Shown: one piece after another, positions 33,301 to 62,160 of the stretch | How the letters are laid out: each line of letters begins with the position of its first letter | Numbering within the stretch: the first letter of the stretch is position 1 | Source: Squalus acanthias | Lineage: Eukaryota | Assembly (NCBI GenBank): GCA_030390025.1 | Contig: JASTWF010001061.1 | Coordinates: forward strand, 62,001 to 126,000 | Direction: 5' to 3' | Length of the DNA stretch: 64,000 nucleotides | Made by a program: the position numbers and the translations under genes | Notes under the pieces: generated by a model | What the model saw: the letters and a program-made list of their open reading frames with translations, nothing else | The model's database searches: none | What the model was told of the DNA's origin: nothing

Positions 33301-34222
33301 TGCTTGTCCGAAATCCATACGATATTTGTGATCGAGTATTTTTGTGTGAGGAATGGGGTGGTGTGAAAGAGAACGATTAGAAACACTCACGGGGGACCCA
33401 CGTTCAAAACACAACTCGAAGAATGGGAATTTCAGATCAGTCTGTTAAGGGGTCATACTGCCCCACAGGTTGATTTCATATCAGTGTGTTATGGGGTCAC
33501 ACCGCCCCACAGGGTGATTTCATATCAGTCTGTTAAGGCTACTTTCAAGACTGCAGTATAAAATTTTAAAGTAAGTCAGAAGACACAGATTTAGGTTAAT
33601 GGCTTGGTAATTGAAAACAAATATTAGGAGCAACTTTCCTCAAGGATGATAAAAGCTACGATGAATTCCTCAGTAGGAAAGCATGGTGTTCCCAATGAAG
33701 TTCCAATCTACTGGGACAGTCCTAACCCCGGAGGGATGAGTTGCAATGGGCCCAATGGCCTTTTCTTGTAGAGAAAATGTAAACTATGTTTTATCACAAT
33801 AAAGATTTGTCACTGGTCGTCCAGGTTTCTTCAATATTAGTTCAGGAAACATCATTGAGAAAAACCTGGCAAAATGTAAAGAAAAACATTCCCCGCTCAC
33901 TGATCGCTACATTTGTATGCTGGGAAATTAGGCCTAGTTAACAATCCCAGATTGAACCGTCGCCATCCAACTCAAAGACAAAGCTTCTGAAAGAGGATGA
34001 GGCCTTCAGGTAGACAGTTTGAGGAAGGCATTAAAAGATGCAAAAGACCATTTACTGGATATAATTAATGATTGTATTGTAAAATATAATCGTTGACGTT
34101 TTAAAATGTAATCTCTTATTGTGGACAATAGAACGTTCAGACAACAGCGATTGGGAAAAAAACCCACACAAAGATGTTTGAGTGATTTGTGGGAACCCGT
34201 GGCCAGATTTCATAATTTCAAA

Positions 34223-34520: not shown

Positions 34521-34780
34521 ATTCTCACTCTTTGATGCATCACTACACAGTGAACCATGGGAGTTCTCATCTTCCGGACTATAGTAAAATGGAGATTGTG
34601 GATGGCTGTGAGATAGACTATTGTGACAGCAATATGTGCATAACGGTTCCAAGGAATCAGTGGATGGTGACTTTCTGTGACACCAGTTACTGTGAGGAAC
34701 TCACAATTACTCTAGCCAGTTTCCACGGAGTCAGAAAGGGCAAGTTTCCAGAACGTTACAACAGATGAACCTCAGTTCAA
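34521..34780 (+). pseudogene. Orphan MHC class I alpha1 exon, paralogous to 45214-45474, with a 1-nt deletion
   Basis: ttctag acceptor and gtaagt donor. Encodes (D)SHSLMHHYTVNHG...DGCEIDY...ITVPRNQWM. It is 260 nt versus 261 nt for the intact copy; the frameshift near 34748 gives TGA at 34766-34768. About 51/87 identities by manual count after restoring the frame. Confidence 0.88.
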
Positions 34781-38768: not shown

Positions 38769-40148
38769 ACAAGAGGAAGAGCCTCCAGGCGTGAATCATT
38801 CTAGGGGCCCGCAGCTGTCACAAAACCCAGTGCTCGCATTTTGTAAAATGTAGAGACTAGTAAATGGATAAAATGCCAATTTCACCCACGGGAGCATGAG
38901 AGTCTTTGGGAAAGTGGAAACATGGGAAAGTTAGATAAGTTAGTGGGACAGTCTAGTTTAAAAAGACTTAAACAGTTGCTGGGAGAAATGTAATCAGACG
39001 TCTTTCCCTGGTTTGGTTTTTACACTTTCTCTCTGAATTTCCCTCTCATTCTGTGACCTCGCCCTCCTCTAGTACAGCTGGTACCTCATGCTGAGACAGA
39101 GTTCTGCGGGTGCCTGCGACCTCTCTCATTTCTCTGATGAGATAACCTTTCAGGTGCGAGCCCATAGAATGAGAGTAAGCAGGATATTCCACTGTGAGGG
39201 GCAGTGCAGCGCAGCACAGACCGATCCAGCATAGGTGCCCAAGGATCTTCCAACGGCTGTTCTCTCAATATCGAGCAGCAATGTGTACGTGGAATCTGCC
39301 AGCCCATAACAGGGAGGCTAATTCTAATCCCACATCCCACCAGGTCGCAGCCTTGGATAAAATCTCAACGTCAACACAGATCAGAGGGACACATCTACTC
39401 TTTGTTGGAGACGGAAAACACCAACAAAGCAACATTTTTTAATTGCCCACCTTGAATGAATATTGTGTGTATTCACAACAAACTGTTGCAACTTGTTTCA
39501 CTAACCAATCATCAAGGTTAGAGTTCTGTTTCCAAACCGTGAAAATGCAACCAAGAAACCAGTGCTTCTGATGTCGCTGTTGACCTTGCTCACAAGGTGA
39601 TGACCATGGGGCAGATTCCCATCTTTACCGCCTGGATATTAAGCCTCGCCTGGCGGAGCACAGAGTAAAACCAGATGGAGAGGCTCCCACATCATTTGCA
39701 GAACCCGCCTGAATTCCCTTCTATTAAACATCTAGCACCGAGTGTATTATTCCAGTGAGGTGGGTTCGAGGCTTGGGGAAAACTGGACCAAGGCGCCCAG
39801 ACATCATTCATCTCCATCTATCTATAATTCCTGCCTTCTCTCCTTACTGATAGAAACCTTTGGTTTTATATAACTCATAGTTACATAAGAAGATTTAGGG
39901 TAATTTAGGAATTGTAATAATTGAGATGGGTGGAGCATTGGGTGTTTTTCCTAGAATAATTCAGTTCCCATTTGAAAGTCAGGACATTCGGTCCTTATTT
40001 TTACTCAGTACTTTGACTTTATATTTTACAGTTTGGTTTGACAGCTCAGAAGCACAAAGTAATGTCAGTTCAAGTGTAAAGTAAGCCGGAATAAAAAAAA
40101 AATGAAATATTAGCCCACACGCCGCTGCTGCAATGACAGCCGCAGTTT

Positions 40149-40320
40149 GGGGCAATTTGAACCTTAGTGGCTGGGCGGGATCCCACGCTGCTTTCCCGCT
40201 CCCGCACAATATTACTCTCCACTGATTTCAATGGAGAATAAAATTGGGCGCGGGGTAAAACCAGTGTTGCCCCCGATCCCGACAGTTGTTCGGCCGGGCG
40301 GGTTAGGTTAAAATAGCCCC
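40149..40320. mobile_element. Short palindromic MITE-like element, representative of a ~140-220 bp family
   Basis: TIRs ggggcaatttgaacct / aggttaaaatagcccc and a central ccactgatttcaatgg. Relatives at ~45511-45690, 45713-45888, 49911-50096, 51756-51974, 52611-52754, 54261-54399, 59472-59629, 60398-60576 and 60581-60973. Confidence 0.7.
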
Positions 40321-40562
40321 ACGGGGTCAGGAAGGGTTTAATTGCCGTGATATGAACTTCGGCGGTTCACTGTATTGAGGTTCAACAAGCTGAATAGTTT
40401 ATCACTCGACTCTCTGCGGCAACGAGGGCGTTTCCCGCTAGATTCAGACAATATATTAATTGTTATCAATTATACAACTTAACCCCCGGAGCGCTGTTTT
40501 AAACATATTTCTAACCGCCCGCCGTGTATTGTCCATGGCCACATGGCGCAGGCCTTGGACTG

Positions 40563-40636
40563 TGAGTCAGTTTCGGTGCTGCTCACGGTTCAGGGACAGC
40601 CCTGGACAATCAGTGACGGATCTTTACTGCGATTGG
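40563..40636 (+). promoter_or_regulatory. MHC class I-type promoter module A (AP-1, ISRE-like half site, X1/X2-like, Y box)
   Basis: TGAGTCA 40563-40569, AGTTTC 40569-40574, cctggacaatcagTGACG 40601-40618, and ATTGG 40632-40636, 121 nt before ATG 40753. CpG-rich context. Confidence 0.6.
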
Positions 40637-40752
40637 ATGGTGAGCTCCCGGACTGCCCACTTGTGAGTGAAGCTGGGCTCGGTTCCATTCAAATCGCTCA
40701 ATCTTGTTCTGTCACTGGGAGAGACGGCAGGTTGGCGGACGGAAGGGACGGC

Positions 40753-40804
40753 ATGTTTCTGTCACTTGTACTGAGTTTCTTCCGCCTACAAGCGGCCCTG
40801 TCTG
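40753..40804 (+). CDS. Candidate MHC class I leader exon A (MFLSLVLSFFRLQAALS)
   Basis: 52 nt, hydrophobic signal-peptide-like, phase-1 donor G|gtgagt in frame with the a1 exon. Confidence 0.72.
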
Positions 40805-42867
40805 GTGAGTAGCCGGTTCGGGATGCATCCTTGAATGTCTCCAGGCTCACCCTCTGATCTTAGACTGTAACCGGCAGGCCTGTCGGTCACATCAGGTGTT
40901 TCACACAGGGAAACTAGTCAGTGTGTGCGGAAGTGAAGCGATGAAGCGGGATTGGTATCTCCATCTTGCTTCTCAGGCTCGCTGATCCCTTTGCTTGGAT
41001 TAGATGATGTCCATTACTGTCCGGACAGCCTGACATTACCGCTCAGTTACTGTGACAGCTTGTATGTTCGCTCTGATAAGCAGGAGGGGGACGGACAGTT
41101 TGTTCCCGCTAAGCGGCTTGCGGGTACGGAAGTGTCAGTATAACTGCGAGCCCAGTCCCGACTTGACCCCCTGAGTGACCCAGATCCCAGCGGCGAGACT
41201 CCTGTAGGAAAGCGGCTCAGTCGGTTTGGGTTCACACCTGTTTCAGTGTAACTCCAGCCGGCGGGAAGCTGCATTTTAAAAGCTTCTTTCTACCTCCTGG
41301 GAACTTGGAAAACCTTTTAAAACTCCCAATAAATCGGACAAATCATTAAAAATACAGAGGGAGGGGTTCACTTTTATCACAGGGGGAAACGGGTTCCAGC
41401 GACCCGGGAACCTCTTTTACACTTTCCGACTCGCTTTAGAATGAAGCTTTGAGGCGATCCGTGCAGGTCCGGGTGAAGATTGAGCTCCCAGAGTTAACCT
41501 CTCTGTCTCTTTCACACTGACCTGCTGCATATTTGCAACATTTGCAGTTTGTAGCGGATTCCCACCATGTGCGGTTCCATTCAGGCTCATGTTGACTCTG
41601 TGCGATGGTGTAACGAGGGCGAGAGCAGTCGACCGCCAGTTTTCCATCTTTCTCTCCGTTTCCCCCTTCTATTGAGTTCAATGGCAGTAACAATCTGGAG
41701 AGCTGTAAAAGGGGCTGCCGACTGGCTATCGCCCGTTTTACTATCGTACAAAGTCAAGATCGAGCCCACTGACTGTTGGAATTGATCAGTGCCTGCTGCT
41801 CACAGCCTGGAGCTGTTCGGGGTGAACATCAGAGGCAGCTTTCGGCACCTGTTACAGCTGCTGCGGAAGAAAGAGAGAACGAAAGACTTGCCTTTCTACA
41901 GCGCCTTTCACCAACTCAGGACATCAGGTGGAAGCCGATTTAACAGAAACTTTGAAAATGGAATTGGACAAATAATTAAAGGGAAAACAAAAATACAGGG
42001 CTCTGGAGAAAGAGCAGGTGAATGGGACTGATTGGCTCGTTATACCAAAGAGCCGACACAGGCACAATGGGCCGAATGGCCTCCTTCTGTGCTATATTAT
42101 TCCATGATTGGATGGAGTTAAAATACAGATCAGCCATGACCTAATTGAATGGCAGTAAAAGTCTCGAGGGGATGAATGGCCTCCTCCTGTTCCTAAATTA
42201 ATGTTGGTGATATTAGAGGTGAAACGCTTACCATATTGGTGTAACATTACTTTGCCTGTTATTTTAATGGTGTAGCCTGCTTAAAACAAGTGTGATATCA
42301 CCTGTGTTACAGCAATGGACAGTAACATGTCTCAGTAATATTGCCAACAGTAATTTTAGGCAGAACATGTATGGCGGTACAGCGAGTAATAAGGCTCAAT
42401 GAACAAGTGTATTTGTATCTTGGTCTGAAATTCCTCTTTCCACTATTTTAGCAGAGCCTCAATCTGTTCAAAGCAGATAGGCTTACACCGCCACTGAAAC
42501 GGAGGAGTGTTGAATTTTCAGATTGTGTAGCTTGTAAACTTTCTATCACCCAGCAGAAACACTGAAAGTGACCAGCCTGTGATTGGCCTTTCATTGACCT
42601 TAACAAGGCGAGGCTGTATTTGCCAGTGAGATTTGCACCTCTTCTGATAAGGTGCAAACACAGGATTGGAGATTGCTGCTGCTTTTAACAGCCAGCTCTA
42701 TAATCGCTAACGATCAGGTTCAGTGGGTAATATTATCGCCGATGCCTTCAATTTGTGTCCCAGTCTTCCTCCAGTTTCAAGTCTTTGCCATTGACCAGTG
42801 TGTTATTTTCTAATCCAATTCTGCCCGCAGTTCCTAATGTTGGGAATAGAGCCAGAGATTCCCTCCC

Positions 42868-42915
42868 CAGTGACGGGAGGTGAGTTCATTCCCATTGGAT
42901 AGAATGAGTTTCACT
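42868..42915 (+). promoter_or_regulatory. MHC class I-type promoter module B (X2/CRE, Y box, ISRE-like)
   Basis: cagTGACG 42868-42875, cccATTGG with ATTGG at 42894-42898 (118 nt before ATG 43012), and AGTTTCACT 42907-42915. Confidence 0.6.
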
Positions 42916-43011
42916 AAACGAGATAAGTAGAATAATGTGGGAGAGGTTCGGGCAACGACATAACTTTCCCGTTTCGCTGTGCAGGGTTTTCACTGAGTGA
43001 CTCCCTGAAAC

Positions 43012-43063
43012 ATGTTCCTCTTTGCTTTAGTGAGCCTTTACTTTTTTCAAAGGGTGGTTCCTG
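43012..43063 (+). CDS. Candidate MHC class I leader exon B (MFLFALVSLYFFQRVVP)
   Basis: 52 nt, hydrophobic, phase-1 donor G|gtaagt. Joining to a1 gives ...VVP-ESHSL. Confidence 0.78.
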
Positions 43064-43139
43064 GTAAGTCAAATGACAGGAGTTGTGCGGCTATATTCAT
43101 TATTGCACTAGACCGCCATCATGAACAAAGTATTTGACC

Positions 43140-43352
43140 CGGGTTTAGTCCGGGATACACCGACTGCCCCCGTGTTTAGTCCGGGTTATACTGCCTGTTC
43201 CGTAATTAGTCCGGGTTACACTGACTGCCCCGTGTTTCGTCCGGGATACAATGACTGCCCCGATGTTTAGTCCGGGTTACACTGACTGCCCTCTTGTTTA
43301 GTCCGGGTTACACTGACTGCCCCCGTGTTTAGTCCGGGTTACACTAACTGCC
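43140..43352. repeat. ~30-32 bp tandem repeat, 7 units (gtgtttagtccgggttacactgactgcccc)
   Basis: Visible directly, starting ~75 nt into the intron after leader B. Confidence 0.95.
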
Positions 43353-45213
43353 TCGGACCTTGCGGATGCCCTGGGGGAGCTCCTGTGTTGGTTGAAATGG
43401 TGAGGTGACGATAGGGCCTCGTGTGGCGTTGGACGGTTAAGAAACACGCCAGAGAGTTACTGCAGGACTGAAGTAATGTCCCTCAATCATAGAGGGGAAT
43501 TTGTGCGGTGATTCAGGCCGACGTGTTGGCAACGTTGGTTGGACTCATTCCAGGAGCTTTCATCACATGACCTCCAGCCCAGTCAAGCCGCCTTCTGTCC
43601 CCAGCTCTAATATTATTGTAATTGTGATTGTTGTGCTGTTGTTGTTATCTTTCTCTCTAGTTTCTTGCAGCGGTGTCCAGGAGATTAATATTTAATTCCT
43701 GGAGACTGCGGGATAGTTCTGGAGGGTTGGTAAACCTATGCTCCGCCTGTCTGATAGATTAAGTTGGTGGGGACAGTATCATTTCATGATCCGGCTTCAT
43801 TTACATGAAATGAGCGCCAAGACCTTTTGATTTAAAGGCTGCCTGCAGTCCCTTAAAGGGACGGTGCACTTTTCAAGGGTGGTTAATGGAGAGCGACTTA
43901 CTGGAGCAGCAGCTTTCATGACATGGTCAGGTGTCCTCCGATTCTCTGGGCAACGGTGGAGGCGCTTGAAGAGCAAGTTAGCACTGGTACTGAGGACCTC
44001 GACTCCTCTAATAGGTAATGATAGGCCCGTCAAATTAGTCAGCTGTAATGGCGAGAGGTGGATGAGCAAGTTAATTGCAGCAACATTGGGTATAAAGTGC
44101 ATGGTAACCGACAGCGGCTGATGGAGATCGACAGCCTGTTTTGGCTATCGTCCAATTTTCTTTTCCAAAGACTTCAATCGAGTAGAAATTCAGGCGGCGG
44201 GCAAAGCTGGCTGCTGATTCGCTGTCGCCCATTCCGCGCTGCCACCCAAGACAAATTTATATTCCATTTTCCCAAGGATCTAGCTGCATTGCAGGAGGAA
44301 ACGTAATGACCTCACCAGGACTGACAAGGTCAGACTCGGCTTCACGTCTTTCTTACTATCTGCACAGCCTCGCACCGCCTGAAGTTAGCCGCTGCTCTAC
44401 TAATCCTTCCCTTCAGACTTCCCATGGCTCTCCTCCAATCACAACTGACACTCCACTACATTCCAGAGTGAAATTACGAGAAGTCCATTAACAGTTCAAA
44501 ATATTCAGCAGCCAGTACAAGAAATTTAAATAGATTAAGTAGTGAAATCCTACAACAAAATAGAAGTAAAATGTCTCCTAAATATTCCAGCATTTTATTT
44601 CAGACCAACTGAGGATCCCTGTAATATCTGCCTCCCGAGTGGTTCCAGTGTGTCGGCAGGATCAGGAACTAGCGGTAACAATGTGGGCAGAGAGGGAAAT
44701 ATTGCTGAGGGCCCTGATAACCTCCTTTAACCGCAATTTGCATATATTCAAGCTGCTTTTCCCCCTCTTTCGCTCAGTAAATCTGAGGCCAATTTTAATG
44801 TCGCTACAAGCAGCGGGCTGGGAGTAGATCACTGCGCACGCACTAGGGGTGGATTCTGCACGGCTTAGTACCATAATTCTGGATGCACTTCCTCACTAAT
44901 TCACCAAAGAATCCCCAGGTCAGACGTGGGACTAAAATCTTAAAGTTACGATTTACAAATGAGATGAGCTGATGTAATTTATTCGAACCATCACATTTTT
45001 CATTTATTTGGAAAATGGGAATATTCTTGTAAATGGATAACATTAAATATTAAGGCTCATTTTGTCTTCTCTGCAATGGTTTAATACGGGAGCGATGGCA
45101 AAATATCCAGTGATCTCTCATTTTTCGAAATAAATTATTTTTCCGAAGTTGTTTTGCAAACGGATATTTCTGATATTTGATATGCCAATTATGTTTTTTT
45201 TATTATATCCTAG

Positions 45214-45474
45214 AGTCTCACTCTCTGTTATATTACTACACCCTGAACCATGGGATTGCTGATCTGCCGGAGTACAGTGTTATGAGGCTTTTGGATGGCT
45301 GTGAGATAGACTATTACGACAAAAATATGAAAATAACTGTTCCAAGACAGCAATGGATGGCGGAAGCATTTGACAAAAGCTACTATGACGAATACACAAG
45401 CACTCTAGCTGGTTTCCACGGACTCATCAAGGGACCGGTTGATAGATGGTTGCAGCAGAACAATCAAACATCAA
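45214..45474 (+). CDS. MHC class I-like heavy chain, alpha1 exon
   Basis: cctag acceptor, A|gtgagt donor, 261 nt. Encodes ESHSLLYYYT...LPEY...DG.EIDYYD...PRQQWM...NQT (N86 sequon). Confidence 0.95.
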
Positions 45475-46043
45475 GTGAGTGTATTCGTTTGAATGAATGC
45501 AGCGAACGACAGGGTTCATTTAAACTTGGGGGATAGTGTAACATGAGTGATATCGAACCGCCTGATATACACCCGCCTGATTTTCCCTTCCATTGACTTC
45601 AGTGGAAGGGAACATTAGGCGAGGTGTATAATGGACAACTAATTGGATATCAGCCATTTTACACCATCTCTGGAAGGTAACATTAACCCCAATGAATGAA
45701 ATTGGTCATACAGGGGGCGAAATTCAGTATCGGTGTGTGTAAAATGGCAGTAGCAGCGAGGCCACCCTTTATACATGCTGATTGATTTTCCTTCCCATTC
45801 CCTTCACAGTAAAATGGGCCGGGTCTATAACAGGCGGCTTTTCCGCTCCCACCCGTTCAGCAACCCTGCTAAAGTTGAATTTCACTTTCATAACATGATA
45901 AAATACGGTCGCCTGTAAATCAGCTGTTGTTTTACACCGCGATCGATAAATAAAATGAGATGTGGTTTAAAACGGGCAAAATATGGGCGCCTGTGAATCA
46001 GCTGTTGTTTTACAGCTTATCGATTTTCTGAAAATCGGACATG

Positions 46044-46505
46044 TTGAATTCTTTAGGTGCACATTATAAACAAATAAACTGTAACTAAAAATAACCATTA
46101 AAGCAAACTTAACATCGTAAATTAAAATTTGGTTACGGGGATGATGATGCACTCCAGTCTCTGCAATGCCCACCGGTCGCGGAAGGCCTTGAGCATGCCA
46201 GCGGACACCGGGTGCTCCATCTCCAGGGCCACCCGGGCGTGAACGTGGCCGCAGAAGAGAGGCAGGCAGTTGGTCCGAACGATCCCCTCGATCGCCTGCT
46301 GCCTGGACCAGTTGATAGCCACTTTGGCCAGTCCCTACAAGGAGGCCCCCCGATCTGCCCGTTCCCCTCCGCACGGAGTGACCAAAGTTCAGGAGCGTGG
46401 GCCTGCAGTGCAGCGAAAAATCGAGGAGCAGGCGCTTCAAATAATGGAAGAGGGGCTGCAACCTCTGACATTCGATACATACATGGAACACGGACTCCTC
46501 CAGGC
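46044..46505 (-). mobile_element. Tx1/L1-like LINE 3' fragment (Cys/His domain)
   Basis: EESVFHVCIECQRLQPLF...FRDRWA. 9-bp duplication tcggacatg at 46035-46043 and 46506-46514, inside a short hairpin element. Confidence 0.7.
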
Positions 46506-46984
46506 TCGGACATGGTGTAAAGTGGGCGGCCGATTCAGCATTGATCAAATTTTACCTGGTCCAACAGATAAAAATGCACCCCTCCCCACCACCACCAGTG
46601 TTTATTGAATGGCATTTGTATTATTACATTTAATTCATGATATTTGTAATATTGGCCCAGAAATTAAACATGGATGGTTCCCGCGGGGGTAAGGATTCCC
46701 CGCGATATCGCACTCCGCGCCTACCTTTTTGCTCCGGGCCCACACGAACTTTAGTTTCAAAGGCTCTCTCTGTTGGAACCGTGCAGTGCTTGCGTGACCC
46801 AGAGACGCAATTAGTTCGTGCGAGCTCTGGGATCACGTGATTCAGTTAGAGCCAATGGCAGCACACCATCTTTCATTCATAGTTTTGACAGGAAGACCTG
46901 TCAAAGCTATGAATACTCCACACCCCCAAAAGAACAGCTAAACCTCAATTAAATTTTTAAAAAAGCCATCACATTAATAAAATA

Positions 46985-48205
46985 TGATGTGGAGATGCCG
47001 GCGTTGGACTGGGGTGGACAAAAATGAGAAGTCGCACAACACCAGGTTATAGTCCAACAGATTTATTTAATTTTACAAGCTTATGGAGCGGTTCGCTCCT
47101 TCCTCAGGTAGGGTAGCAGTGAGAGAATCTCCCAGAATTCACAACATAGACATAGACAAAATCTATTCAAATCTTTCCCTACATCAAAGACACACTAAGA
47201 GCACAGCCAAGACAATGAGATGTGTCCCAGGGGGTCCAACGTGTCAAAACACCTGCTGGCTGCATATCCTGTCAATTTGTGTTGGTTCTTGTGTTAGTCT
47301 TCGTTAGTCAACATGTCATCGATGACGACAAACACCTTGCTAAGGCCATCCCCACGCCTCCACTACTCGCCTTCAAGCAGCCGCCTAACCTCAAAAGTAC
47401 CATCGTTCGCAGCAGATTACGCATCTTTCAGGAGAACAGCAACGACGACACCACACAACCCTGCCACGGAAACCTCTGCAAGACATGCCAAATCATGGAC
47501 ACAGATAACATCATCACACGTGAGGACACTACCCACCAGGTACACGGTACATACTCATGTGACTCGGCCAACGTTGTCTACCTGATACGTTGCAGTAAAG
47601 GATGCTCCAGAGCATGGTACATCGGCGAGACCATGTAGACACTGAGACAACGTATGAACGGACACCGCGCAACAATCGCCAGGCAGGAGGGTTGCCTCCC
47701 AGTCGGGGAACACTTCAGCAGCCAGGGGCATTCAGCCTCGGATCTGCGGGTAAGCGTTCTCCAAGGCGGCCTTCGGGATGCACGACAGCGCAAAATCATC
47801 GAGCAGAAACTGATAGCCAAGTTCCGCACTCATGAGGATGGCCTCAATCGCGATATCGGGTTCATGTCACGATACAGAACGTGACTTGACATCATGGCCG
47901 GTCTTTCCAGGTGTTTTTTTTTTAAAAAGACTAACACAAGAACCAACACAAATTGACAGGATATGCAGCCAGCAGGTGTTTTGACACGTTGGACCCCCTG
48001 GGACACATCTCATTGTCTTGGCTGTGCTCTTAGTGTGTCTTTGATGTAGGGAAAGATTTGAATAGATTTTGTCTATGTCTATATTGTGAATTCTGGGAGA
48101 TTCTCTCACTGCTACCCTACCTGAGGAAGGAGCGAACCGCTCCGAAAGCTTGTAAAATTAAATAAATCTGTTGGACTATAACCTGGTGTTGTGCGACTTC
48201 TCATT
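46985..48205 (+). mobile_element. 5'-truncated Penelope-like element: GIY-YIG endonuclease between inverted terminal repeats
   Basis: 47302-47884 encodes QPPNL...CKTC...NVVYLIRC...WYIGETM*TLRQRMNGH...VGEHF...EQKLI...GLN, with one TAG at 47636-47638. ~279-bp inverted repeats at 47023-47301 and 47927-48205. Duplication cattaataaaata at 46972-46984 and 48202-48214. Confidence 0.93.
48118..48154 (+). ncRNA. Minimal type I hammerhead ribozyme with an intact core
   Basis: tac-CTGAGGA-a-GGAGCG-aac-CGCTCC-GAAA-gc-tt-gta. Palindromic AAGCTT at stem III. Confidence 0.8.
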
Positions 48206-48695
48206 AATAAAATAAGTATAGTTAAATAAATTAACCACTTTAAACAAAAAATTAAATTTTTGAAAACATTTAAAATCTTTTTAGAAGTTATAAAAATAAA
48301 CTTACCTTTCTTTAAAGTCTCTAAAAAAGATAAACCTGTTGAAAAAAAATTAAAATAACACTTAATTAACTACTTACCTTGTTAAAAGGGGGTCCTACGC
48401 CTGCTTTCTTTGTGTGTAAAATCTTCACCACTTACCTGCGCATTCAAAGCTGAAAAAAAAAGTGCACTGCGTGCGCACAGCCTGTAGCGCGCACGCGGTT
48501 CACTTAGGAACCGCCCCCTTTTCAATTCACGAAGTGCCGGTTTCCCGCACATGCGCAGTGCATGCAGGAAACCAGCAATTCGGGATCAAATACGTGAGAG
48601 TACACCGTGCGTACTCTCACGTATTAGGTCTAATTTTCGGGCCATTATGTTTATTTAATTGTTTTGCTGGTGGTTTACATGTAACTAATCATAAT

Positions 48696-49440
48696 GGGCC
48701 AGAAATTCGGGTCTCCACGGGTACTCACCCGTAGACTGAACGAAAGTGCCGGTTTTGCGCATGCACTGCACATGCGCTGGAAACCGGAACTTCCGTTCCC
48801 CTGAAGGAAGGGGTTCAGAGGTCGAACGCGTGCGCTGGAGAGGCAGTGCTTAGACCTCGAACTTCAGTTTTTTTTCAGGTTTCTCCATGAGGGTTAGTAC
48901 GGAGAAGCTGCGTGGGGAAAAAGGAGGCGCAAGGCCTGCTTTTAACAAGGTAAGTGGTGAATTAAGTACAATTTAAAAAAATTTCAACAGGTTTATCTTT
49001 TTTACATACTTTAAAGAAAGGTAAGTTTATTTTTAGCACAGTTAAAAAGTGTAATTAATTTTTTCAAAAATTTAATTTTTTTTTAAAGTAGTTAATTTAT
49101 GTAATATATAGTTATTTTAAAAATGTGATGCTTTTTTAAAAATTATTTGAAGTTTTAGTGAGGTTTTGGGGCCGATCTCTATTCATAGATTTGACAGGTC
49201 TTCCTGTCAAATCTGTGAATGAAGATTCCCTGCTCCGATTGGCTCTCCATGGCCCACGTGATCCCAGGGGACGCTTCGCACAAACTGCGCCCCTGGGATA
49301 CACGAACACTGCACGCCGGCAGCTGCAGGAGGCCCAGCAGCCGAATTCCACTGGGCCCGAAGCACAACGGCAGGCGCGGTATGTAAGTACGCGCACGATT
49401 CTTGCACCCGCGGGAAGCCGAAGAGCCGAATTTCTGGCCT
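48696..49440 (-). mobile_element. MITE copy 3, inverted relative to copy 2
   Basis: TIRs gggccagaaattcgg / ccgaatttctggcct. The internal sequence is the reverse complement of copies 1 and 2. Confidence 0.82.
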
Positions 49441-50432
49441 ATTATGTTTATGGGGTAATTTTTAACTCTTCAGCAAATAAGTAAGTGGCCAATATTGGAC
49501 CGACCGCCCGTTCTACACCTCGCTCGGATTCCCTTTCAATTGCGCGAGGTTTATAACAAGCCAATGACCCGATATTTTCCGCTTTACACTATGACCACAA
49601 TTTAAAATTAACCCCTCCATGCATGGTCATATTACTTTTAATGAATAATATTCGTAATAGATTTATTGAATGACATTGGAAATAACACATGTATTGAATC
49701 ATATTGGCAATATTGTGTCTATTGAATTATATTGGCAATATTAAATTGAAGGATTATTATTCATATCATTGCATTTGCTCAGTGATATTAGTGAGCACAT
49801 ATTTGATATTTAATGTAGATGTGTAAGTTTGAGGCTTCAATGCCATCTTATATCCCGCAGGTTGCTTATCAGAAATACATAATGCACTGCCTGCAGTTTT
49901 CTATACATTAGGGGTAAATTTTATATTTGGGCAATAGTGTAAAATGAGCGATATCGAACTGACTACCCAATATACTCCCTGTGTAATTTTCCCTTCCGTT
50001 GACCTCTATGGACGTGAGAATCAGGCGAGGTGCAAAATGGGCGGACGATCCAATATCGCCCATTTTACACACACATCCAAAGTCAAAATTACTTTCATGG
50101 AGTCAAGTCCATTGTAACAAGCTTGGAGGACAGGGAATGTTAGCCTATGCTGTGCAAACATAACGCAGTCCCCAATTTAATATCATTTCTGGCATGTATT
50201 GTGACAGCATTGGCTAATATTCTGGCATGTTATTTTATAGTTAAGTAACAACATTGCTGGAAAACTGTGAAGGTGAGAAGTAGAGTCGGTTTATGCACGG
50301 GAGTTTTCCAGAAGTATAGGCTGAAGAGTTGGGTAACAAAAAACTGAGGCATTACAGCGCCACCATTGGAGCGAGGGTGCAATTGCAACATGCTGACTTT
50401 TCATCGGCAACTCCCATTTCAAATGTTGACAT

Positions 50433-51390
50433 ATAGAATCATAGAATAATACATCACAGAAAGAGGCCATTCGGCCCATCGTGCCTGTGCCGAGTCTTTG
50501 AAAGCTATCCAATTAGACCCACTCCCCTGCCCTTTCCCCATAGCCCTGCAACGATTCCCCTTCAAGTATTTATCCAATTCCCTTTTGAAAGTCACTATTG
50601 AATCTGCTTCCAGCACCCTCTCAGGTAATACATTCCAGATCACAACAACCCACCACGTAAACAAAACCGTCATATCACCTCTGGCACGTTTTCCAATTAC
50701 CTTAAATCTGTGTCCTCTTGTTAACGACCTCACTCCTTATTCACTCTTATCCAAGGCCTTTATGATTTTGAACAGGAATCCAGAGGAATTGATAATGGGC
50801 AAAGGTTGATAAAAATGTGACAACAGGAAGTAAGAACATAAGAACATAAGATAAGAGCAGGAGCAGACCATTCGGCCCCTCGAGCCTGCTCTGCCATTTA
50901 ATGCGATCATGGCTGATCCAATTTTGGCCTCAACTCCACTTTGCTGCCTGCTCACCCTAACCCTTGATTCCCCTGTTCCTCAAAGATCTGCCTATCTCAG
51001 CCTTAAATATGTTCAATAACTCAGCTTCCACAGCTCTCTGGGGAAAATAATTGCAAAGCTTCCCGACACTCTGATAGAAGAAATTCCTCCTCACCTCCGT
51101 CTTAAATGGGCGACCCCTTATTCTGAGACTGTGCCCCCTCGTTCTAGATTGCCTGACGAGGGGAAACATCCTCTCAGCATCAACCCTGTCCAACCCCCTC
51201 AGAATATTATATGTAACAATAAGATCACCTGTCATTCCTCTAATCTCCAATGAGTACAGGCCGAACCAGCTCATCCTTTCCTCATAAGACAACACTTCCA
51301 TCCCAGGAATCAACCTAGTGAACCTTCTCTGAACTGCCTCCAATGGAAGTATATCCCTCCTTAAATAAGGGGACCAAAACTGTACGTAGT
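50433..51390 (-). mobile_element. Two CR1 3' fragments (50433-~50770 and ~50826-51390)
   Basis: TRGHRFKVIGKR and EAVQRRFTRLIPGM ORFs. Tails appear as catagaat and taagaaca repeats. Confidence 0.85.
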
Positions 51391-52316
51391 AGGTTGTGTG
51401 GACAGGTAGTACATAACATTTCTAATAAAATATAGCTAGATTTATAGTTAAATACCAACATTTATTCAATTTGGGAAGCAGTGAAGTAGAATTGGTTGGT
51501 GCACCGCAGTTTCTCTGGGAAATGCAAAGCTAAGTCCGACAGTGCCACCACCGGTGGGAGGCTGTAATTACAGCATGACCAGCCGACGGTGGCAGCTTCC
51601 TTTTTAAGGTGGACATAGGATTTTATAAAGGGAATTGTTAACACAAATGTAGTAGAAATATGACAACAGGAAGTATGCTTTTGTGGACAGGAATTAGACA
51701 CAGATGTAAGAGTTTTAAATTTTCTACTCAATGTCCTGTGGTGTTGCATATGTGAGGGGTAATTTTAACTTTTGGTGACAGTGTAAAATGAGTGATATTG
51801 GATCGGCCACCCATTACACACTCCGCCCAATCTTCCCTTCCATTGGGGCCATGGTGAATTGACAGCCCATTTTATATCTTTGAAGTTATTAGAAGAACAA
51901 TGGGTGGAGTGTAAAACGAGTGCTGATTCGCTATGAGTCCATTTCGCACTACTGGAGAAGACCAATTTCACCTCGTCTGTATTTTGCTCAATGGGTCATT
52001 GAGTATAACATCAGGGACTTGATATTGACTTACAGAAGACATTGGTTAGGACACTGTTGGGGTTTTTCATGCAGGTCTGAACACCTAATATAGCAGGAAT
52101 ATTACAGCAGGCAGCTGCCGTTTACCTTTGGTGCCAATTGTTCTCTTTCTGTGCTGTAAATTCTATGTCCCTGTGTGATGAACCTTGTTTTAGACACTAA
52201 ATTCCATTTCTACACATAGTAATGGAAAGAGTAACTAAAGAATAACTGAAATTCTGAGATTTGGTGTATAGATGAGATAATTATGTAGCTATTGATCGAT
52301 TCAATTACTGTTCTAG

Positions 52317-52592
52317 GTATTCACTACATTCAAGGACTGTTTGGCTGTGAGCTGAATGATGCCAATCCTAGTGTAGGGGTGTTGAAATTCGCTTATGATG
52401 GAAGATACTCATTTAGTTTCGATAAAGACAAATTGGATTGGACTGTACATGATCCAATAGCTCAGACCTTCAAAGTGAAATGGGATAAGGAAACAAAGAT
52501 GAATCTTTATTTCAAGAGCTTATTAGAAAATGACTGTGTGGATGTATGGAGAATATACTATTCAATTGGAAATGCTTCACTAAACAGACAAG
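52317..52592 (+). CDS. MHC class I-like heavy chain, alpha2 exon
   Basis: ttctag acceptor, G|gtaagt donor, 276 nt. Encodes IHYIQGLFGCEL...AYDG...KVKWD...LENDCV, with the C101-C164 pair. Confidence 0.95.
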
Positions 52593-52820
52593 GTAAGTTC
52601 AGAACAAACTGGGGGTAAATTTAAATTTTGGAGATAGTGTAGAACTGGCGATATTGGATCAGCTTCCGTTATGAACCTCTCCCCATTCTCCTTTAACAGG
52701 CGGCTGATCCGATATCACCTGTTTTACATTAGTGGCAAAAGTTAAAATGACTTCATTCATTCTGTTTTGAAATGTGTGACTTTTATTGAAGTTGAAAATA
52801 ACTGTCGTTCTATCATGTAG

Positions 52821-53087
52821 TTTCCCCTGAGGTCTCAGTTATTGCCAGGGCTGCTGATCGTTGGTTTCTCCACTGCATTGTGACGGGATTTTATCCACAG
52901 TCCATCAGCGTGACCTGGTTGAAGAATGGAGAACATGCCCCTGAGACCAAATCTACTGGGCTATTACCCAATCACGATGGGACGTATCAACTAACGACAA
53001 CCCTTGAATTTGATCCGTATGATGGGAAACAATACTCCTGTCATATTGAGCACAGCAGCTTGCCGGGTGGGAAAACAGTCTCCTGGG
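52821..53087 (+). CDS. MHC class I-like heavy chain, alpha3 (C1-set Ig) exon
   Basis: atgtag acceptor, G|gtaagg donor, 267 nt. Encodes VSPEVSV...LHCIVTGFYPQSISVTW...LPNHDGTYQ...YSCHIEHSSL...W. Confidence 0.96.
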
Positions 53088-54659
53088 GTAAGGACATGAG
53101 CAGCAATACTGAACAATCCATCAATAATAGCAACACTCACCCATACAGAGATAGAGAGCAGAAAGAGATCAATGAAATGAATGACTGAACCAAATTGCAC
53201 ATTACCTCCCTGCTTTACTACTCTATTCCTCTACAAATGAACCGGATGTTCTGTCTCCCAGTGATGTTTATTGGTTACTATTGGCTCTCCCGGGCTGTTG
53301 CTGATGGACAAGAACAGGAACATTGAAATCTTCCACTCCCTGTAACTGTCTTTTCTTGTCCATCACTTTCTCTGTCTTCTTCTTTTTCTCTATTTCTTCA
53401 TACATCAGACAACACGTTTATTATCTGTGTATTTCAGGCTGTCTGTGATTGTTCTTCATTCTTGCTCTCTCTTTTAGTCCATTTCTGTTATCTTCTGACA
53501 CTTCCATAATCTGCGTCTACCCCTCATTGTGTGCTTCTCACACTTGCTTTATCTGGATGTATTTCCCATTGCTTCTTGCTGTCTATCTCCACTCCATACC
53601 CACACACCTCACACACACTGCATGGTCTCAGAGTTAGATAACAAATCAATCCCTGTTCACAGTCTATCTGGGTTAGAGAATGGATTAATCTACATTCACC
53701 ACCCACTCTCAGACATCAGACTCTTTATTTCCCCGACTTGCTGTTGCTTAACTCTTTGTTTCTGCTTTCTCATTGTTGTTCCCTTTCACTGTGGTGATGG
53801 AGCTGCTCGGTTTCTGAGCTGGAACTTTGGCTCTGTGCTGAGCTATTTCCCTTTCAGCCTCAGTGTGTTTTTGCTTCTCTTGTCTCTTTGTTCAGGTGGG
53901 GAATGAGAGGACGGTTCACTTTGGGATATTAGAGGAGGAGTGGGGAAGTGTTGTGAGGAAAGGTCATTAAAATGTAGTGAAATGGGGGGGGGGGGAGGGG
54001 TGAAAATAATGCGGCCTGGTGGTAAGGGTGAGTCTGAGGCTGGGCTTCTGAGGCGGGGATGAGCCGAAGTGCACTGGGAGCTGCAGGCAGGGAAGGTGGG
54101 GGCGGTGGGCTTTGCCCAGAAAGCAAGGAGCTGCAGCAAGAATGATGGTTGGGACAGCTGTAGGGGAACCCCAGGAGATAAGCCTAGAAATTGCTGTTGG
54201 TGATTAACAGTGTCACCAAATGTCTCATGGGGAACCTCCTGCTGTTGGTTTAGACACAGCGGGGTAGATTTCCAACCTGCCGCCCGGGTGTAAAACCGGA
54301 GTTGCCTCCAATGGGAATGAAAAGCGGGCAGTTTGTGTGACAGGCGGCTGATCCACAGCGACAATTTCACACCAGAGCGGCACGGTGAAAATCTACCACA
54401 AATTGTTTAATAGATAACGGTGCTGCTCATTCAGGTCTCTCCATGGAAAGTTGCCTCCCTCAGAGGAACAGGTAGGATGATCCTTATGACCTGGAATTGT
54501 ATTTCTGGTCGGTTACTGCGTTGATCCTCTGCTGAGGGCAAGTTCCAGATGTTGCGGCCCAACCTGCGCAGTTCCCAGTTGTTTAATACAATCCCTTCCA
54601 TTAGACAATCGGTTCATTAAAGGTCTCTTTTATGGGCTGCATATACACAGCTTCCTATA

Positions 54660-55810
54660 ATCAGATCTGTCTGTCTGTCTTTCTCTCTATCTGTCTCCTT
54701 GTCTCTCTAACTATGTCTCTCTCTCTCTCTCTCTCTCTCCGTCCCACTCTTTGCCTCTCTCCGTCTCTCTCTCTGTCTCTCTCTCTCTCTCTCTCTGTCC
54801 CACTCTTTGTCTCTCTCTGTCTCTCGCTCTGTCTCTCTCTCACTCTGTCCCTCTGTCTGTCTGTCTGCCTGTCTCTCTGAATCTCTGTCTGTCTGTTTCT
54901 CTCTCTGTCTGTCTCTTACTTTGTCTCTCTGTCTGACTGTCTCTCTCTGTCTGTCTCTCTGTCTGTATATCTCTGNNNNNNNNNNNNNNNNNNNNNNNNN
55001 NNNNNNNNNNNNNNNNNNNNNNNNNNNNNNNNNNNNNNNNNNNNNNNNNNNNNNNNNNNNNNNNNNNNNNNNNNNNNNNNNNNNNNNNNNNNNNNNNNNN
55101 NNNNNNNNNNNNNNNNNNNNNNNNNNNNNNNNNNNNNNNNNNNNNNNNNNNNNNNNNNNNNNNNNNNNNNNNNNNNNNNNNNNNNNNNNNNNNNNNNNNN
55201 NNNNNNNNNNNNNNNNNNNNNNNNNNNNNNNNNNNNNNNNNNNNNNNNNNNNNNNNNNNNNNNNNNNNNNNNNNNNNNNNNNNNNNNNNNNNNNNNNNNN
55301 NNNNNNNNNNNNNNNNNNNNNNNNNNNNNNNNNNNNNNNNNNNNNNNNNNNNNNNNNNNNNNNNNNNNNNNNNNNNNNNNNNNNNNNNNNNNNNNNNNNN
55401 NNNNNNNNNNNNNNNNNNNNNNNNNNNNNNNNNNNNNNNNCTGGCTGGCTGTCTCTCTGTCTGTCTGTCTCTCTCTCTCTCTGTCTCTCTCTCTTTGTCT
55501 CTCTGTCTGTCTCTCTCTCTCTTTCCCTCGTTCTGTCTCTCTNNNNNNNNNNNNNNNNNNNNNNNNNNNNNNNNNNNNNNNNNNNNNNNNNNNNNNNNNN
55601 NNNNNNNNNNNNNNNNNNNNNNNNNNNNNNNNNNNNNNNNNNNNNNNNNNNNNNNNNNNNNNNNNNNNNNNNNNNNNNNNNNNNNNNNNNNNNNNNNNNN
55701 NNNNNNNNNNNNNNNNNNNNNNNNNNNNNNNNNNNNNNNNNNNNNNNNNNNNNNNNNNNNNNNNNNNNNNNNNNNNCTCTATCTATCTATCTCGCGATTT
55801 CTATCTGTCT
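54660..55810. repeat. (CT)n/(CTGT)n microsatellite with N gaps at 54976-55440 and 55543-55776
   Basis: Visible directly. Confidence 0.97.
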
Positions 55811-56718
55811 ATTTTGAAAATGGTGACTGTGGTTAAGATTCCGAAGCTGCTGCACCAATCTAACATTACATTAGGTGACAGATTGAAAATGATAGGGTGC
55901 CGCCTATTGTTGAACGATACCACAAACCTGCTCTTGCAGTACATTGAAAATTCGCATTAAAGAAACGGAGTCTGTAAGCAGTTACAGACGCTGACCACTG
56001 AGTGGCACTGTGGAGCAGTCTGGGTTTTGGAGACAGCAGTGATATTGCTGTGGATAAGTAAAAGGGAGCAAAGATTTAACTGTGTGAATTAAATGTAAAC
56101 TTTGCACCTTGAGCCCCATCCCATCACACAGAGCTGCGGGGACGGTCAGAAGCTCGATCCCCCAGCCCTGGGAGCTGGCACAGTGGCATCATCTATTCAA
56201 CTGCCATTACTTACCCCTCATATTGCCCCTTTCACCAGGGCCGCAGACACAGACCTCTGCCACTTTCCTACCTGGCTCCCCTCACACAGCGATCCATGGG
56301 GGTTTGCGTGGTAGAGGACTGCTAGCTTCCCCTGCCTCGCTGAGCACCACGACCACAACCTTTTTCCACTGGCCTCCCAGCAGCACATTCTTATCGCTGG
56401 CCCAGCACCGATCAGTCTAGAATCCATGCTTCATTCTTCACAGTCATTGCTTCTTCCTCCACCACCCCCAGTCACCTTTACAGCCTGACCACCTGTCTTT
56501 GACCAGAATCTGTGCTTTATTCACAAAAAGTGAAGTTTGTGGCTTTAAAGAAACCTTAATGAAATAATACATTGTGCATTATATGGTGTAGGGATACTGT
56601 CCATATAAAACAGCGCATCATCCTACTTACCATGAGCAGGGCCATAGATTTCCACGGATTATATATACAACTGTCAATCCGCACATATAATTATACAACC
56701 CTTGCCAATATTTTTCAG

Positions 56719-56825
56719 AAGGAAAAGTAGAGAAAGTCAAGCATGTGGGGCTGATTGTCGTGTGTGTACTGGTGTCGCTGGCTATCGTTATAGTTTTAAT
56801 CTATATGTGGAGGAAAAAAACAGAG
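56719..56825 (+). CDS. MHC class I-like connecting peptide/transmembrane exon
   Basis: tttttcag acceptor in phase 1. Encodes EGKVEKVKHVGLIVVCVLVSLAIVIVLIYMWRKKTE, then a GAG|gtaagg donor, or read-through to TGA at 56868-56870. Confidence 0.85.
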
Positions 56826-56940
56826 GTAAGGCGAGGGTATAATGTTACACCCCTGTTTGTAAAAGTATGACACAGCGGCTTTGCAGAAAATCCTTTGGCC
56901 TGCCCCAGGATTATATTTGAATTGTAAATATCTGTTATAA

Positions 56941-58725
56941 AGAAAGAAAAAGAAAAACTTTCATTTATATCGCGCGCCTTTCACGACCTCAGGACGTCCC
57001 AAAGTGCTTTACAGCCAATGAAGTACTTTCATTTTCAGGGTAGTCACTGTTGTAATGTAGGAAACGCGGCATCCAAGTTGCGCACAGCAAGTTCCCGCAA
57101 AAAGTGGTGCGATAATGATAATCTGTTTTTAATGATCGTGAATGAGGGATAAATATTGGCCAGCAAACCGGAGAGATCTCCCCTGCTCTTCTTCGAGCTG
57201 GTGTCATGGGATCTTTTGCATCCACCTGAGAGGGCAGATAGGGCCTCGGTTTAACATCTCATCTGAAGGACGGCACCTCCGACAGTTCGGCACTTCCTCA
57301 GTACTGCACTGGAGTGTCATACAAACATTGAAAAATAGGAGCAGGAATAGGCCATTCAATATAATCATGGCTGATCCTCTATCTCAATACCATATTCCCG
57401 CTCTCTCCCCATACCCCCAATGACTTTTGCGTCTAGAAATCTATCTATATCCTTCTTAAATATATTCAGTGACTGGGCCTCCACAGCCTTCTGTGGTAGA
57501 GAATTCCACAGGTTCACCACCCTCTGAGTGAAGAAACTTCTCCTCATCTCAGTCCTAAATGTCCTAGCCGGTATCCTGAGACTGTGACCCCTCGTTCTAG
57601 ACACCCCCCCCCCCAGCCAGGGGAAACATCCTGCCTGCATCCAGTCTTTCTAGCCCTGTCAGAATTTAATACGTTTAAATGAGATCCCTTCTCATTCTTC
57701 TAAACTCTAATGAATACAGGCCTAGTCAAACCAATCTCTCCTCATACGACAGTCCTTCCATCCCAGGAATCCGTCTGGTGAACCTTCGTTGCTCCCCTCG
57801 ATGGCAAGTATATCCTTTCTTACGTAAGGAGACAAAACTGCACACAGTACTCCAGGTGTGGTCGCACCAAGACCCTGTATAACTGTAGTAAAACATCCTT
57901 GCTCCTGTACTCAAATCCTCTTGCAATGAAGGCCAACATAGCATTTGACTTCCTAACTGCTTGCTGCACGTGCATGTTTGCTTTCAGTGACTGGTGTACA
58001 AGAACACCCAGGTCCCTTTGTACATCAACATTTCCCAATCTATCACCATTTAAATAATGCTCTACCTTTCTGTTTTTCCTACCGAAGTGGATAACTTCAC
58101 ATTTATCTACGTTATACTGCATCAGACATGTATTTGCCCACTCAATCAACTTGCCTAAATCGCCTTGAAACCTCTTTGCATCCTCCTCACAACTCACAAT
58201 CCCTCCAAGTTTCGTGTCGTCAGCAAACTGGGAAATATTACATTTGGTTTCCTCATCCAAATCACTGATTTATATTGTGAATAGCTGCGGCCCAAGCACT
58301 GATCCCTGCGGTACCCCACTAGTCGCCGCCTGCCACCCCGAACAAGTCCCATTTATTCCTACTCTCTGTTTCCTGTCTGTTAACCAATTTCCAATCCATG
58401 CCAGTGTATTATCCCCAATCCCATGTGCTTTAATTTTGCACACTAACCTCTTATGTGGGACTTTATCAAAGGTTTTCTGAAAATCCAAATACACCACATC
58501 CACTGGTTCTCCCTTATCTATTCTACCAGTTACATCCTCAAAAATCTCCAGTAGGTATGACAAACACGATTTACCTTTCATAAATCCATGTTGACTTTGT
58601 CTCATCCCGTTGATATTTTCTAAGTGTCCTGTTATCACATCCTTTATAATAGACTCTAGCATTTTCCCTACTACTATCAGCCTAGATTTTAATGCTCAAT
58701 TCTCTGGAGTGGGATTAAAATGGTT
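56941..58725 (-). mobile_element. tRNA-type SINE split by a CR1 LINE (57321-~58676, minus strand)
   Basis: The SINE breaks at ...gcactggagtgtca and resumes at tcagcctagatttt. The insert has YLDFQKTFDKVPH, GVPQGS and FADD. Confidence 0.82.
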
Positions 58726-60624: not shown

Positions 60625-60818
60625 TGACTTGGCAGCAAAATGGGAGAGAGCGAATTGCCAGCAAAATGGGAGAGATCAACTTAGCAGCGAAATGGGAGAA
60701 AGCGACTTGGCAGCAAAATGGGAGAGAGCTACTTGCCAGCAAATCGGGCGATAGTGACATGGCAGCAAAATGGCGATTGCGACTTGGCAGCAAATCGGGC
60801 GATAGTGACTTGGCAGCC
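60625..60818. repeat. ~24-bp tandem repeat (gacttggcagcaaaatgggagaga) inside a hairpin element
   Basis: About 8 degenerate units between the termini at 60581 and ~60973. Confidence 0.8.
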
Positions 60819-61224: not shown

Positions 61225-62160
61225 GAACATATGAACATAGGAAGAGGATTAAGCCTGATCCGCCATTAAATGAGACCCTGGCTGATCTGCGACCTAACTC
61301 AATATATGCACCTTTACACCATAGCCCTTAATACCTTTGGTTAACAGAAAGCTATTAATCTACGATTTACCATTAACAATTGTTCTAGCATCAATTGCCG
61401 TTTGCGGCAGAGTGTTCCAAACTTCCACCACCCTTTGTGTGTAGAAGTATTTGCTAATTTCACTCCTAAAAGGTCTGTCTCTAATTTTTAGACTATGCCC
61501 CCTAGGCCTAGAATTCCCATCCAGTGGAAATAGTTTCTCTCTGTCTACCCTTTCTGTATCCCTTAATATCATGAAAATTTCGATCAGATCACCTCTTAAC
61601 CTTCTAAATTCTAGGGAATACAACCCTAATTTGTGCAATCTCTCCTTGTAACTTAACCCTTGAGGTCCGGATATCATTCTGGTAAACTTACGCTGCACTC
61701 CCTCCATGGCCAATAAATGGTTCCTAAGATGTGGTGCCCAGAACTGTTCACAGTACTCCAAGTGCGGTCTAACCAGTGTTTTGTACAGCTGCAGCATAAG
61801 TTCAACCCTCTTGTATTCTAGAACTCTATATATAAAGACCAGCATCCCATTAGCCTTTTTGAATATTTTTTGTACCTGTTGATGACATTTTAATCATCTA
61901 TGTACATGGTCCCCCAAGTATCTTTGGACCTCGGCTGTTTGTAGAATTCACCATTTAGAAAGTATCCTGTTCTATCCTTTTTAGGTCCAAAGTGAATGAC
62001 CTCACATTTGCCTCCATTGAAATCAATTTGCCACAGTTTTGCCCATTCACTTAATCTGTCAATATCCCTTTGCAATGTTATGCTTCCATCTACACTGCCT
62101 ACAATTCCACCTATTTTGTGTCGTCGGCAATTTGGATATATGAATTTCCATGTATTCATC
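61225..62160 (-). mobile_element. CR1 LINE 3' region
   Basis: [27 protein letters not shown]. Same subfamily as 5086-8375. Confidence 0.9.

Follow-up and report, generated by a model that had tools for sequence, protein, structure and literature searches.

A class I gene in the window

The stretch analysed here, called the window, comprises 64,000 nucleotides (nt) of Squalus acanthias (assembly GCA_030390025.1, contig JASTWF010001061.1, forward-strand positions 62,001 to 126,000), and coordinates are counted from its first letter. It contains a gene of five exons for a class I molecule of the major histocompatibility complex (MHC), which is almost certainly the heavy-chain gene of UGA, a non-classical class I lineage of elasmobranchs. 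The exons lie on the plus strand and are separated by four phase-1 GT-AG introns. Residues are numbered in the style of HLA-A2, from its landmark residues. The parts of the gene and the features around its start are the following.

40753-40804, plus strand: exon 1, leader peptide; ATG at 40753, phase-1 GT donor
45214-45474, plus strand: exon 2, alpha1; N86 sequon, private changes G26R, W60Y and Q77P, match to PDB entry 9CH4 with E 1.5e-40
52317-52592, plus strand: exon 3, alpha2; C101/C164 pair, UGA signature Y122, F143, F156 and L159, match to 9CH4 with E 3.9e-42
52821-53087, plus strand: exon 4, alpha3, immunoglobulin C1-set domain; Pfam C1-set E 2e-20
56719-56870, plus strand: exon 5, transmembrane segment and tail; GT-AG, phase-1 junction
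40001-42000, no strand: CpG-rich stretch over promoter and first exon; ratio of observed to expected CpG between 0.65 and 0.97 in four bins of 500 nt, 0.51 over the whole window
40569-40636, plus strand: putative promoter motifs AGTTTC (40569), TGACG (40614) and ATTGG (40632)

The spliced frame of 1008 nt is open and encodes 335 residues followed by TGA. The GT-AG sites in phase 1 and the open frame that an earlier note on this DNA had described are thereby confirmed for all four introns. The start codon at 40753 agrees with the models of sawshark (P0003) and sevengill shark (P0004). As read from the DNA, the product is predicted to be a type I membrane glycoprotein with a leader, the domains alpha1, alpha2 and alpha3, a transmembrane segment and a short tail, and it keeps both disulfide pairs as well as the N86 sequon. 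Pfam recognizes alpha2 as MHC_I (E 2.2e-14) and alpha3 as C1-set; alpha1 has no Pfam match at 1e-3, despite its strong match to 9CH4. In alpha3, 82 of 88 residues are the same as in sawshark P0002. The gene model is least secure in its last exon, and the ectodomain and transmembrane segment are intact under either reading of the tail given below. The three motifs upstream of the ATG resemble what we take to be class I promoter elements, i.e., an element of the interferon-stimulated response element type, X2 and a Y-box, with an X2-Y spacing of 13 nt that is presumably shorter than usual. No AATAAA occurs within 3 kb downstream of the gene; a single ATTAAA lies at 58714.

Assignment to the UGA lineage

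In a search of solved structures, 9CH4 was by far the best match for both domains of the groove, some 28-30 orders of magnitude beyond the next ones (E 5.3e-10 for alpha1 and 2.9e-14 for alpha2). Identities, counted by eye from the alignments, amount to about 63/86 in alpha1 and about 64/89 in alpha2, i.e., roughly 72-73%. The entry, released on 2026-03-18, bears the title 'Crystal structure of shark nonclassical MHC CLASS I, UGA'. In the supplement of a 2023 study, the alpha1 domain of 'Gcirratum_UGA' (nurse shark) reads identical to that of 9CH4, and 'Lerinacea_UGA' (little skate), compared by eye, equals protein P0028 except for one alpha1 position, with a match throughout alpha3 (PMC10751288). 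Close relatives in the protein searches came only from sharks and rays (8 hits and 18 hits).

Trees were built from 39 ectodomain rows, namely the window protein and 38 rows from 37 named proteins, chosen out of 217 collected; no CD1 or MR1 sequence was included. For the single-domain trees 32 rows were used, after removal of three long tetrapod or lungfish rows and four near-duplicates. Outgroup rows were named UDA-like, UBA-like or UCA/UEA-like after comparison by eye with the supplement, and the rows contain no certain UEA reference. In the ectodomain tree, the window protein and 21 shark and ray rows, including the skate UGA reference P0028, form one clade with support 100/100 on a stem of 0.55. 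Ectodomain identity is 59-85% to these 21 rows and at most 42% to the remaining ones. The nearest rows are those of sawshark, horn shark and sevengill shark. The classical-type rows group apart, in a clade of their own (99/95). Domain trees, which the earlier note had proposed, place the gene in UGA for alpha1 (98/98) and for alpha3 (97/99). In the alpha2-only tree the clade is not recovered, because a long UFA-like row falls inside it, and the grouping appears in only 28% of the bootstrap trees.

Judged by its sequence, the gene is a further orthologue of the already named UGA lineage and does not represent an undescribed one. Membership in UFA, another non-classical elasmobranch lineage, was considered and rejected. 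The alpha1 domain matches the UFA structure 8GM8 with E 1.4e-9 only, whereas the basking shark protein P0168 matches it with E 4.3e-90, and the per-domain identity of the window protein to P0168 is 22-36%.

Two sets of sequences outside the clade deserve mention in their own right. The little skate class I protein P0042 (XP_055486430.1) is about 42% identical to the window protein and has UGA-like groove motifs with D122 and W167 kept. In the ectodomain tree it falls close to UGA and UFA but not within the UGA clade, and in the alpha1 tree it is sister to UGA (91/59); its best PDB match is 9CH4 (E 2.9e-60), and by eye none of the labelled alpha1 sequences of the supplement matches it. It may represent an unnamed UGA-related lineage. 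The Callorhinchus milii proteins P0114 and P0089 represent the chimaera sequence that resembles 'Cmilii_UGA' of the supplement, and this sequence never groups with elasmobranch UGA in the four trees, so the label may cover a different lineage.

Groove residues and the alpha3 loop

As classical anchors of the peptide termini we take Y7, Y59, R84, T143, K146, W147, Y159, W167 and Y171, and 37 positions were taken as groove-facing. The numbering was checked on five rows (two from Triakis, two from Mobula, one from lungfish), which show the full anchor set at those columns. In the window protein R84, T143, Y159 and W167 are lost. The residue calls of the earlier note all hold, with Y7, Y59, N86, K146, W147 and Y171 kept and Q84, Y122, S123, F143, L159 and V167 changed. 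S123 is not diagnostic, however, because it is shared with both classical Triakis rows. The same note had found no evident acidic CD8-binding loop in alpha3. Indeed only two of 15 loop residues are acidic, but the count is equal in the classical Triakis rows (two) and close to that in the Mobula rows (three), so the make-up of the loop does not set the gene apart from classical class I of sharks.

The changes in the groove are a trait of the whole lineage, because their signature is common to all 22 rows of the UGA clade, the window protein included: L159 and an aromatic residue at 122 occur in 22/22, T143 and W167 in 0/22. This signature (aromatic 122, L159, no T143, no W167) was derived from our own alignment and not from a published definition. 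Most of the lineage has retained Y7, Y59, K146, W147 and Y171. Bulky side chains are contributed by F99, F143, F156 and L159. Mean hydropathy over the 37 groove-facing positions is 0.44 for the window protein. The other UGA rows range from 0.21 to 1.14, the five rows with the classical anchors from -0.38 to 0.11. The groove is accordingly predicted to be lined by aromatic and aliphatic residues and to be more hydrophobic than in classical-type rows.

Two other identities were weighed against UGA. That the gene belongs to an undescribed non-classical lineage, as the earlier note had thought conceivable, is highly improbable. UGA is admittedly thinly published: in PMC10751288 the name has 0 occurrences in the main text and stands only in the supplement, and no primary UGA paper was found in a literature search that covered few subscription journals. 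But the lineage is named in that 2023 supplement, in a 2025 review (PMC12562908) and in the 2026 PDB title, and a crystal structure of it, 9CH4, is deposited. The gene clusters tightly (100/100) inside this lineage, an outcome that the earlier note had itself named as speaking against novelty. Still more improbable is that the gene represents classical UAA, as a divergent allele or locus serving peptide presentation to CD8 T cells. The five anchors kept and an alpha3 loop no less acidic than that of classical Triakis molecules would suit such a gene; its per-domain identity of 33-38% to Triakis class I, the separate clade of the classical-type rows and the loss of four anchors argue against it. 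The general diagnosis of the earlier note is supported: the class I gene is intact, non-classical and from a cartilaginous fish, and some of its peptide anchors are gone.

Private changes, last intron and tail

The copy in the window differs from its relatives by G26R, W60Y and Q77P, at alpha1 sites that are conserved in 20 of 21 relatives. The fold was viewed on an AlphaFold model of the sawshark P0002 ectodomain (pLDDT, the predicted local distance difference test score, 94.9), which served as a proxy and outside which the three private residues lie; a first model, of sawshark P0003, was poor (mean pLDDT 60) and was set aside. On the proxy, position 77 falls within the long alpha1 helix (residues 54-81). 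Departures from the consensus number five, at the low end of the range of 4-26 in relatives, and the end branch of the ectodomain tree is 0.087 against a median of 0.12. Because of these few departures and the short branch, the gene does not appear to be in general decay.

The last exon can be divided into three parts.

56719-56825, plus strand: connecting peptide, transmembrane helix and basic stop-transfer segment; run of seven A at 56814-56820
56826-56835, plus strand: 10-nt GT...AG stretch at the site of the relatives' last intron; too short to be spliced, read through in frame as assembled
56836-56870, plus strand: tyrosine-bearing tail YNVT and stop; counterpart of a tail exon that stands alone in relatives and mostly has YxxV or YxxI

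In relatives, whose intron positions were inferred from protein isoforms, the tail is an exon of its own behind a phase-1 intron, because the isoforms P0027 (Scyliorhinus, catshark) and P0213 (Cetorhinus, basking shark) skip the transmembrane exon and join alpha3 straight to the tyrosine tail. These two annotated UGA isoforms would be soluble. At the corresponding place in the window there is a strong donor at 56826 in phase 0 and an AG at 56834-56835. Either the intron may have been deleted together with a compensating loss of one base, or the run of seven A may be one base short in the assembly. The latter reading stays open because the window has two other single-base deletions in short runs, near 14612 in a receptor gene and near 34741 in an orphan exon. 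The tail motif is unlikely to be there by chance, as it occurs at only four of 63078 window positions, this one included, and it is unrelated to the local repeats (longest other match 15 nt). A C-terminal YxxV or YxxI is found in 30 of 43 protein entries of the UGA clade; whale shark P0019 ends in YxxT, as the window protein does. An alternative tail exon at 63559 (EYNLI) was rejected: its pyrimidine tract is poor, its phase does not fit the donor as assembled, and it lies antisense to a receptor pseudogene; by our own estimate about one such match is expected per 7 kb.

The window also holds a remnant of a second UGA-type gene.

34521-34780, plus strand: orphan degenerate UGA-type alpha1 exon, a paralogue fragment; both splice sites present, one-base deletion near 34741

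This exon is identical to exon 2 at 203 of 279 nt. Over 73 codons, the differing ones comprise 28 non-synonymous and 10 synonymous changes. Like the intact gene it is without G26 (E instead) and W60 (C instead), and the window contains no alpha2 or alpha3 partner for it. A profile search of 2668 six-frame segments of the window found only four class I exons, and in copy number the 64 kb hold a single intact UGA gene besides the orphan exon. Rhinoraja longicauda has ten UGA entries (P0005 and P0010-P0018), which lie on one contig and fall into one 90% cluster with differing alpha1 domains. This suggests a UGA expansion in that species, at odds with a 'single- or low-copy' gene.

Ligand and proposed mechanism

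The UGA heavy chain most likely pairs with beta2-microglobulin, as its family would lead one to expect. With four of nine peptide-terminus anchors gone, and with lipid binding reported second-hand for the lineage, the groove probably holds a lipid or another hydrophobic ligand. A CD1-like presentation of this ligand to innate-like T cells might then follow. In most relatives, the YxxV or YxxI tail could route the protein via endosomes for ligand exchange, if it acts as the CD1 motif does. The window copy, in its assembled form, has a tail that continues the transmembrane exon and reads YNVT, and endosomal routing may be weaker. For the ligand itself, a 2025 review states that crystal structure and mass spectrometry suggest binding of lipids comparable to those of CD1d by both UFA and UGA (PMC12562908, section 2.1). 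We regard a lipid-presenting mechanism as likely, and a UGA heavy chain with CD1-like lipid presentation as the best explanation of the locus overall, one held with good confidence. The possibility of a non-canonical ligand, raised in the earlier note, has thus become a probable one.

Several observations weigh against lipid presentation. Five of the nine classical anchors are kept. The shift in hydropathy is modest, and one UBA-like row, at 0.27, falls inside the UGA range, for which reason the measure is only suggestive. Classical shark class I molecules also carry a tyrosine at the start of the tail, without a following V or I, so the tyrosine is ancestral and alone no mark of CD1. For its statement on UGA the review cites a personal communication (PMC12562908). 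In the fold ranking of the P0002 proxy, 9CH4 comes first (Z 30.3, root-mean-square deviation 1.8, 266 aligned residues), and chicken classical BF2 is barely below it (Z 29.0, 1.8, 265 aligned). Behind 9CH4 the ranking by Z continues with classical molecules that have a peptide bound, and then with MR1 and YF1. CD1 and 8GM8 are not among the best 50 of 999 aligned structures, which is not taken as evidence. Since the class I families hardly differ in Z-score, the backbone does not reveal the ligand.

Three alternatives accept the UGA identity and differ in what the molecule does; we consider each of them unlikely. The least unlikely is a ligand other than CD1-type lipids, such as hydrophobic peptides, lipopeptides (as in chicken YF1) or small metabolites (as in MR1). 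It would agree with the retention of Y7, Y59, K146, W147 and Y171 across most of the lineage and with the structural neighbours that follow 9CH4. The likeness of an AlphaFold backbone says little on the ligand, however, and the bulky F143, F156, L159 and F99, the four lost anchors and the CD1d-like lipids reported in the review (PMC12562908) all point away from it. A little less probable is that the window copy is a relaxed, decaying or functionally shifted UGA paralogue in which the helix and floor of alpha1 are altered and sorting is weakened. In its favour are the three changes at near-invariant sites, of which Q77P introduces a proline into the long helix of alpha1, the last intron shrunk to 10 nt with YxxV or YxxI turned into YNVT, the orphan alpha1 exon 10.7 kb upstream as a trace of local duplication and decay, and the multicopy state of UGA in sawshark and sawfish (three rows each). 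Against these stand the open frame, both disulfide pairs and the N86 sequon, and the short end branch with only five departures from consensus; moreover, whale shark P0019 shares YxxT, and the oddity of the tail may be an assembly error.

By a narrow step the most doubtful of the three is a natural CD1-like variant of UGA. Here, genomic loss of the last intron, with 10 nt left and a compensating one-base shift, would have fused the tail and degraded the YxxPhi motif (Phi, a bulky hydrophobic residue), and the gain of P77 in the helix and of a possible buried R26-D34 pair in the groove floor would let the molecule present a different set of lipids from a different compartment. CD1a and CD1d differ in just these respects, i.e., in lipid sets and compartments. 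If true, sharks would show an isoform specialisation in the style of CD1, as CD1a differs from CD1d. The UGA heavy chain with CD1-like lipid presentation remains the preferred explanation in what follows.

Surroundings of the gene

Next to the class I sequences, the window contains genes for receptors of the seven-transmembrane G protein-coupled receptor (GPCR) type and several kinds of repeats.

16389-16320 and 14640-13734, minus strand: two-exon seven-transmembrane GPCR gene; shares 60% identity with the receptor half of skate P0184, its frame broken only by a one-base shift near 14612
63995-63138, minus strand: second GPCR of the same kind; several stops and frameshifts, reaches the window end
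1389-3069, 43138-43352, 60626-60817 and 33429-33538: minisatellites with periods of 23, 31, 26 and 44 nt, respectively
54976-55440 and 55543-55776: N gaps in intron 4, bordered by CT-rich microsatellites
221-727, 17681-19174, 29225-30021, 46243-47881, 57823-58695 and 61363-62159, among others: frame fragments resembling long interspersed nuclear elements or other retroelements, recognized by eye

The frameshift near 14612 may be an assembly error. The skate model P0184 fuses UGA with a GPCR of this kind. The class Ib cluster of sawfish contains ten 'probable GPCR 139' genes, compared with the two seven-transmembrane genes of the window. No MHC marker gene was found in the 64 kb. In Mustelus, Heterodontus and Mobula, UGA orthologues and other class I genes come from contigs of equal length, which is only indirect evidence of linkage. 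The surroundings fit an MHC class Ib position without proving it. The N gaps of the window are three in number and total 849 nt. The retroelement-like fragments are typical shark repeats.

Significance

UGA bears on the question, raised by others, whether lipid antigen presentation is as old as the jawed vertebrates, and on whether CD1 descends from such MHC-linked genes. The gene described here adds a UGA orthologue from a shark lineage for which annotated matches in the searched protein sets reached at most 85%. If reads confirm them, its changes at three near-invariant positions of alpha1 and its apparently fused, weakened tail could serve to probe what UGA needs for ligand binding and trafficking.

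Comparison with known systems

Tetrapod CD1 is, by report, similar in function. The YxxPhi tail of most UGA relatives resembles what we take to be the endosomal sorting motif of CD1. CD1 is absent from the 20 structures matched by alpha1 and from the best 60 of the 503 matched by alpha2. Lipid ligands like those of CD1 are reported for UGA in the review (PMC12562908), and according to the 2023 study, orthology with CD1 is hard to assess even for UFA (PMC10751288).

Classical shark UAA (PDB 6LUP; Triakis P0072 and P0195) shares with the window gene the domain layout, the phase-1 exon plan, the N86 sequon, the residues Y7, Y59, K146, W147 and Y171 and the tyrosine at the start of the tail. It differs by an identity of only 33-38% per domain and by keeping R84, T143, Y159 and W167 in a more polar groove.

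Elasmobranch UFA is represented by PDB 8GM8, whose alpha1 matches 'Gcirratum_UFA' in the supplement (PMC10751288), and by basking shark P0168. UFA, too, is reported to be CD1-like and to bind lipids (PMC10751288; PMC12562908). A 99/96 branch of the ectodomain tree has UFA and UGA together on one side, a placement that carries a long-branch warning. Unlike in the window protein, most anchor positions of UFA carry other residues, and the per-domain identity given above is low.

The closest system is elasmobranch UGA itself, as known from nurse shark 9CH4 and little skate P0028. With these the window protein has the groove signature Y9, Y22, F70, F99, Y122, F143, F156 and L159 in common, and it departs from them by its private G26R, W60Y, Q77P and L167V and, as assembled, by a YNVT tail fused to the transmembrane exon.

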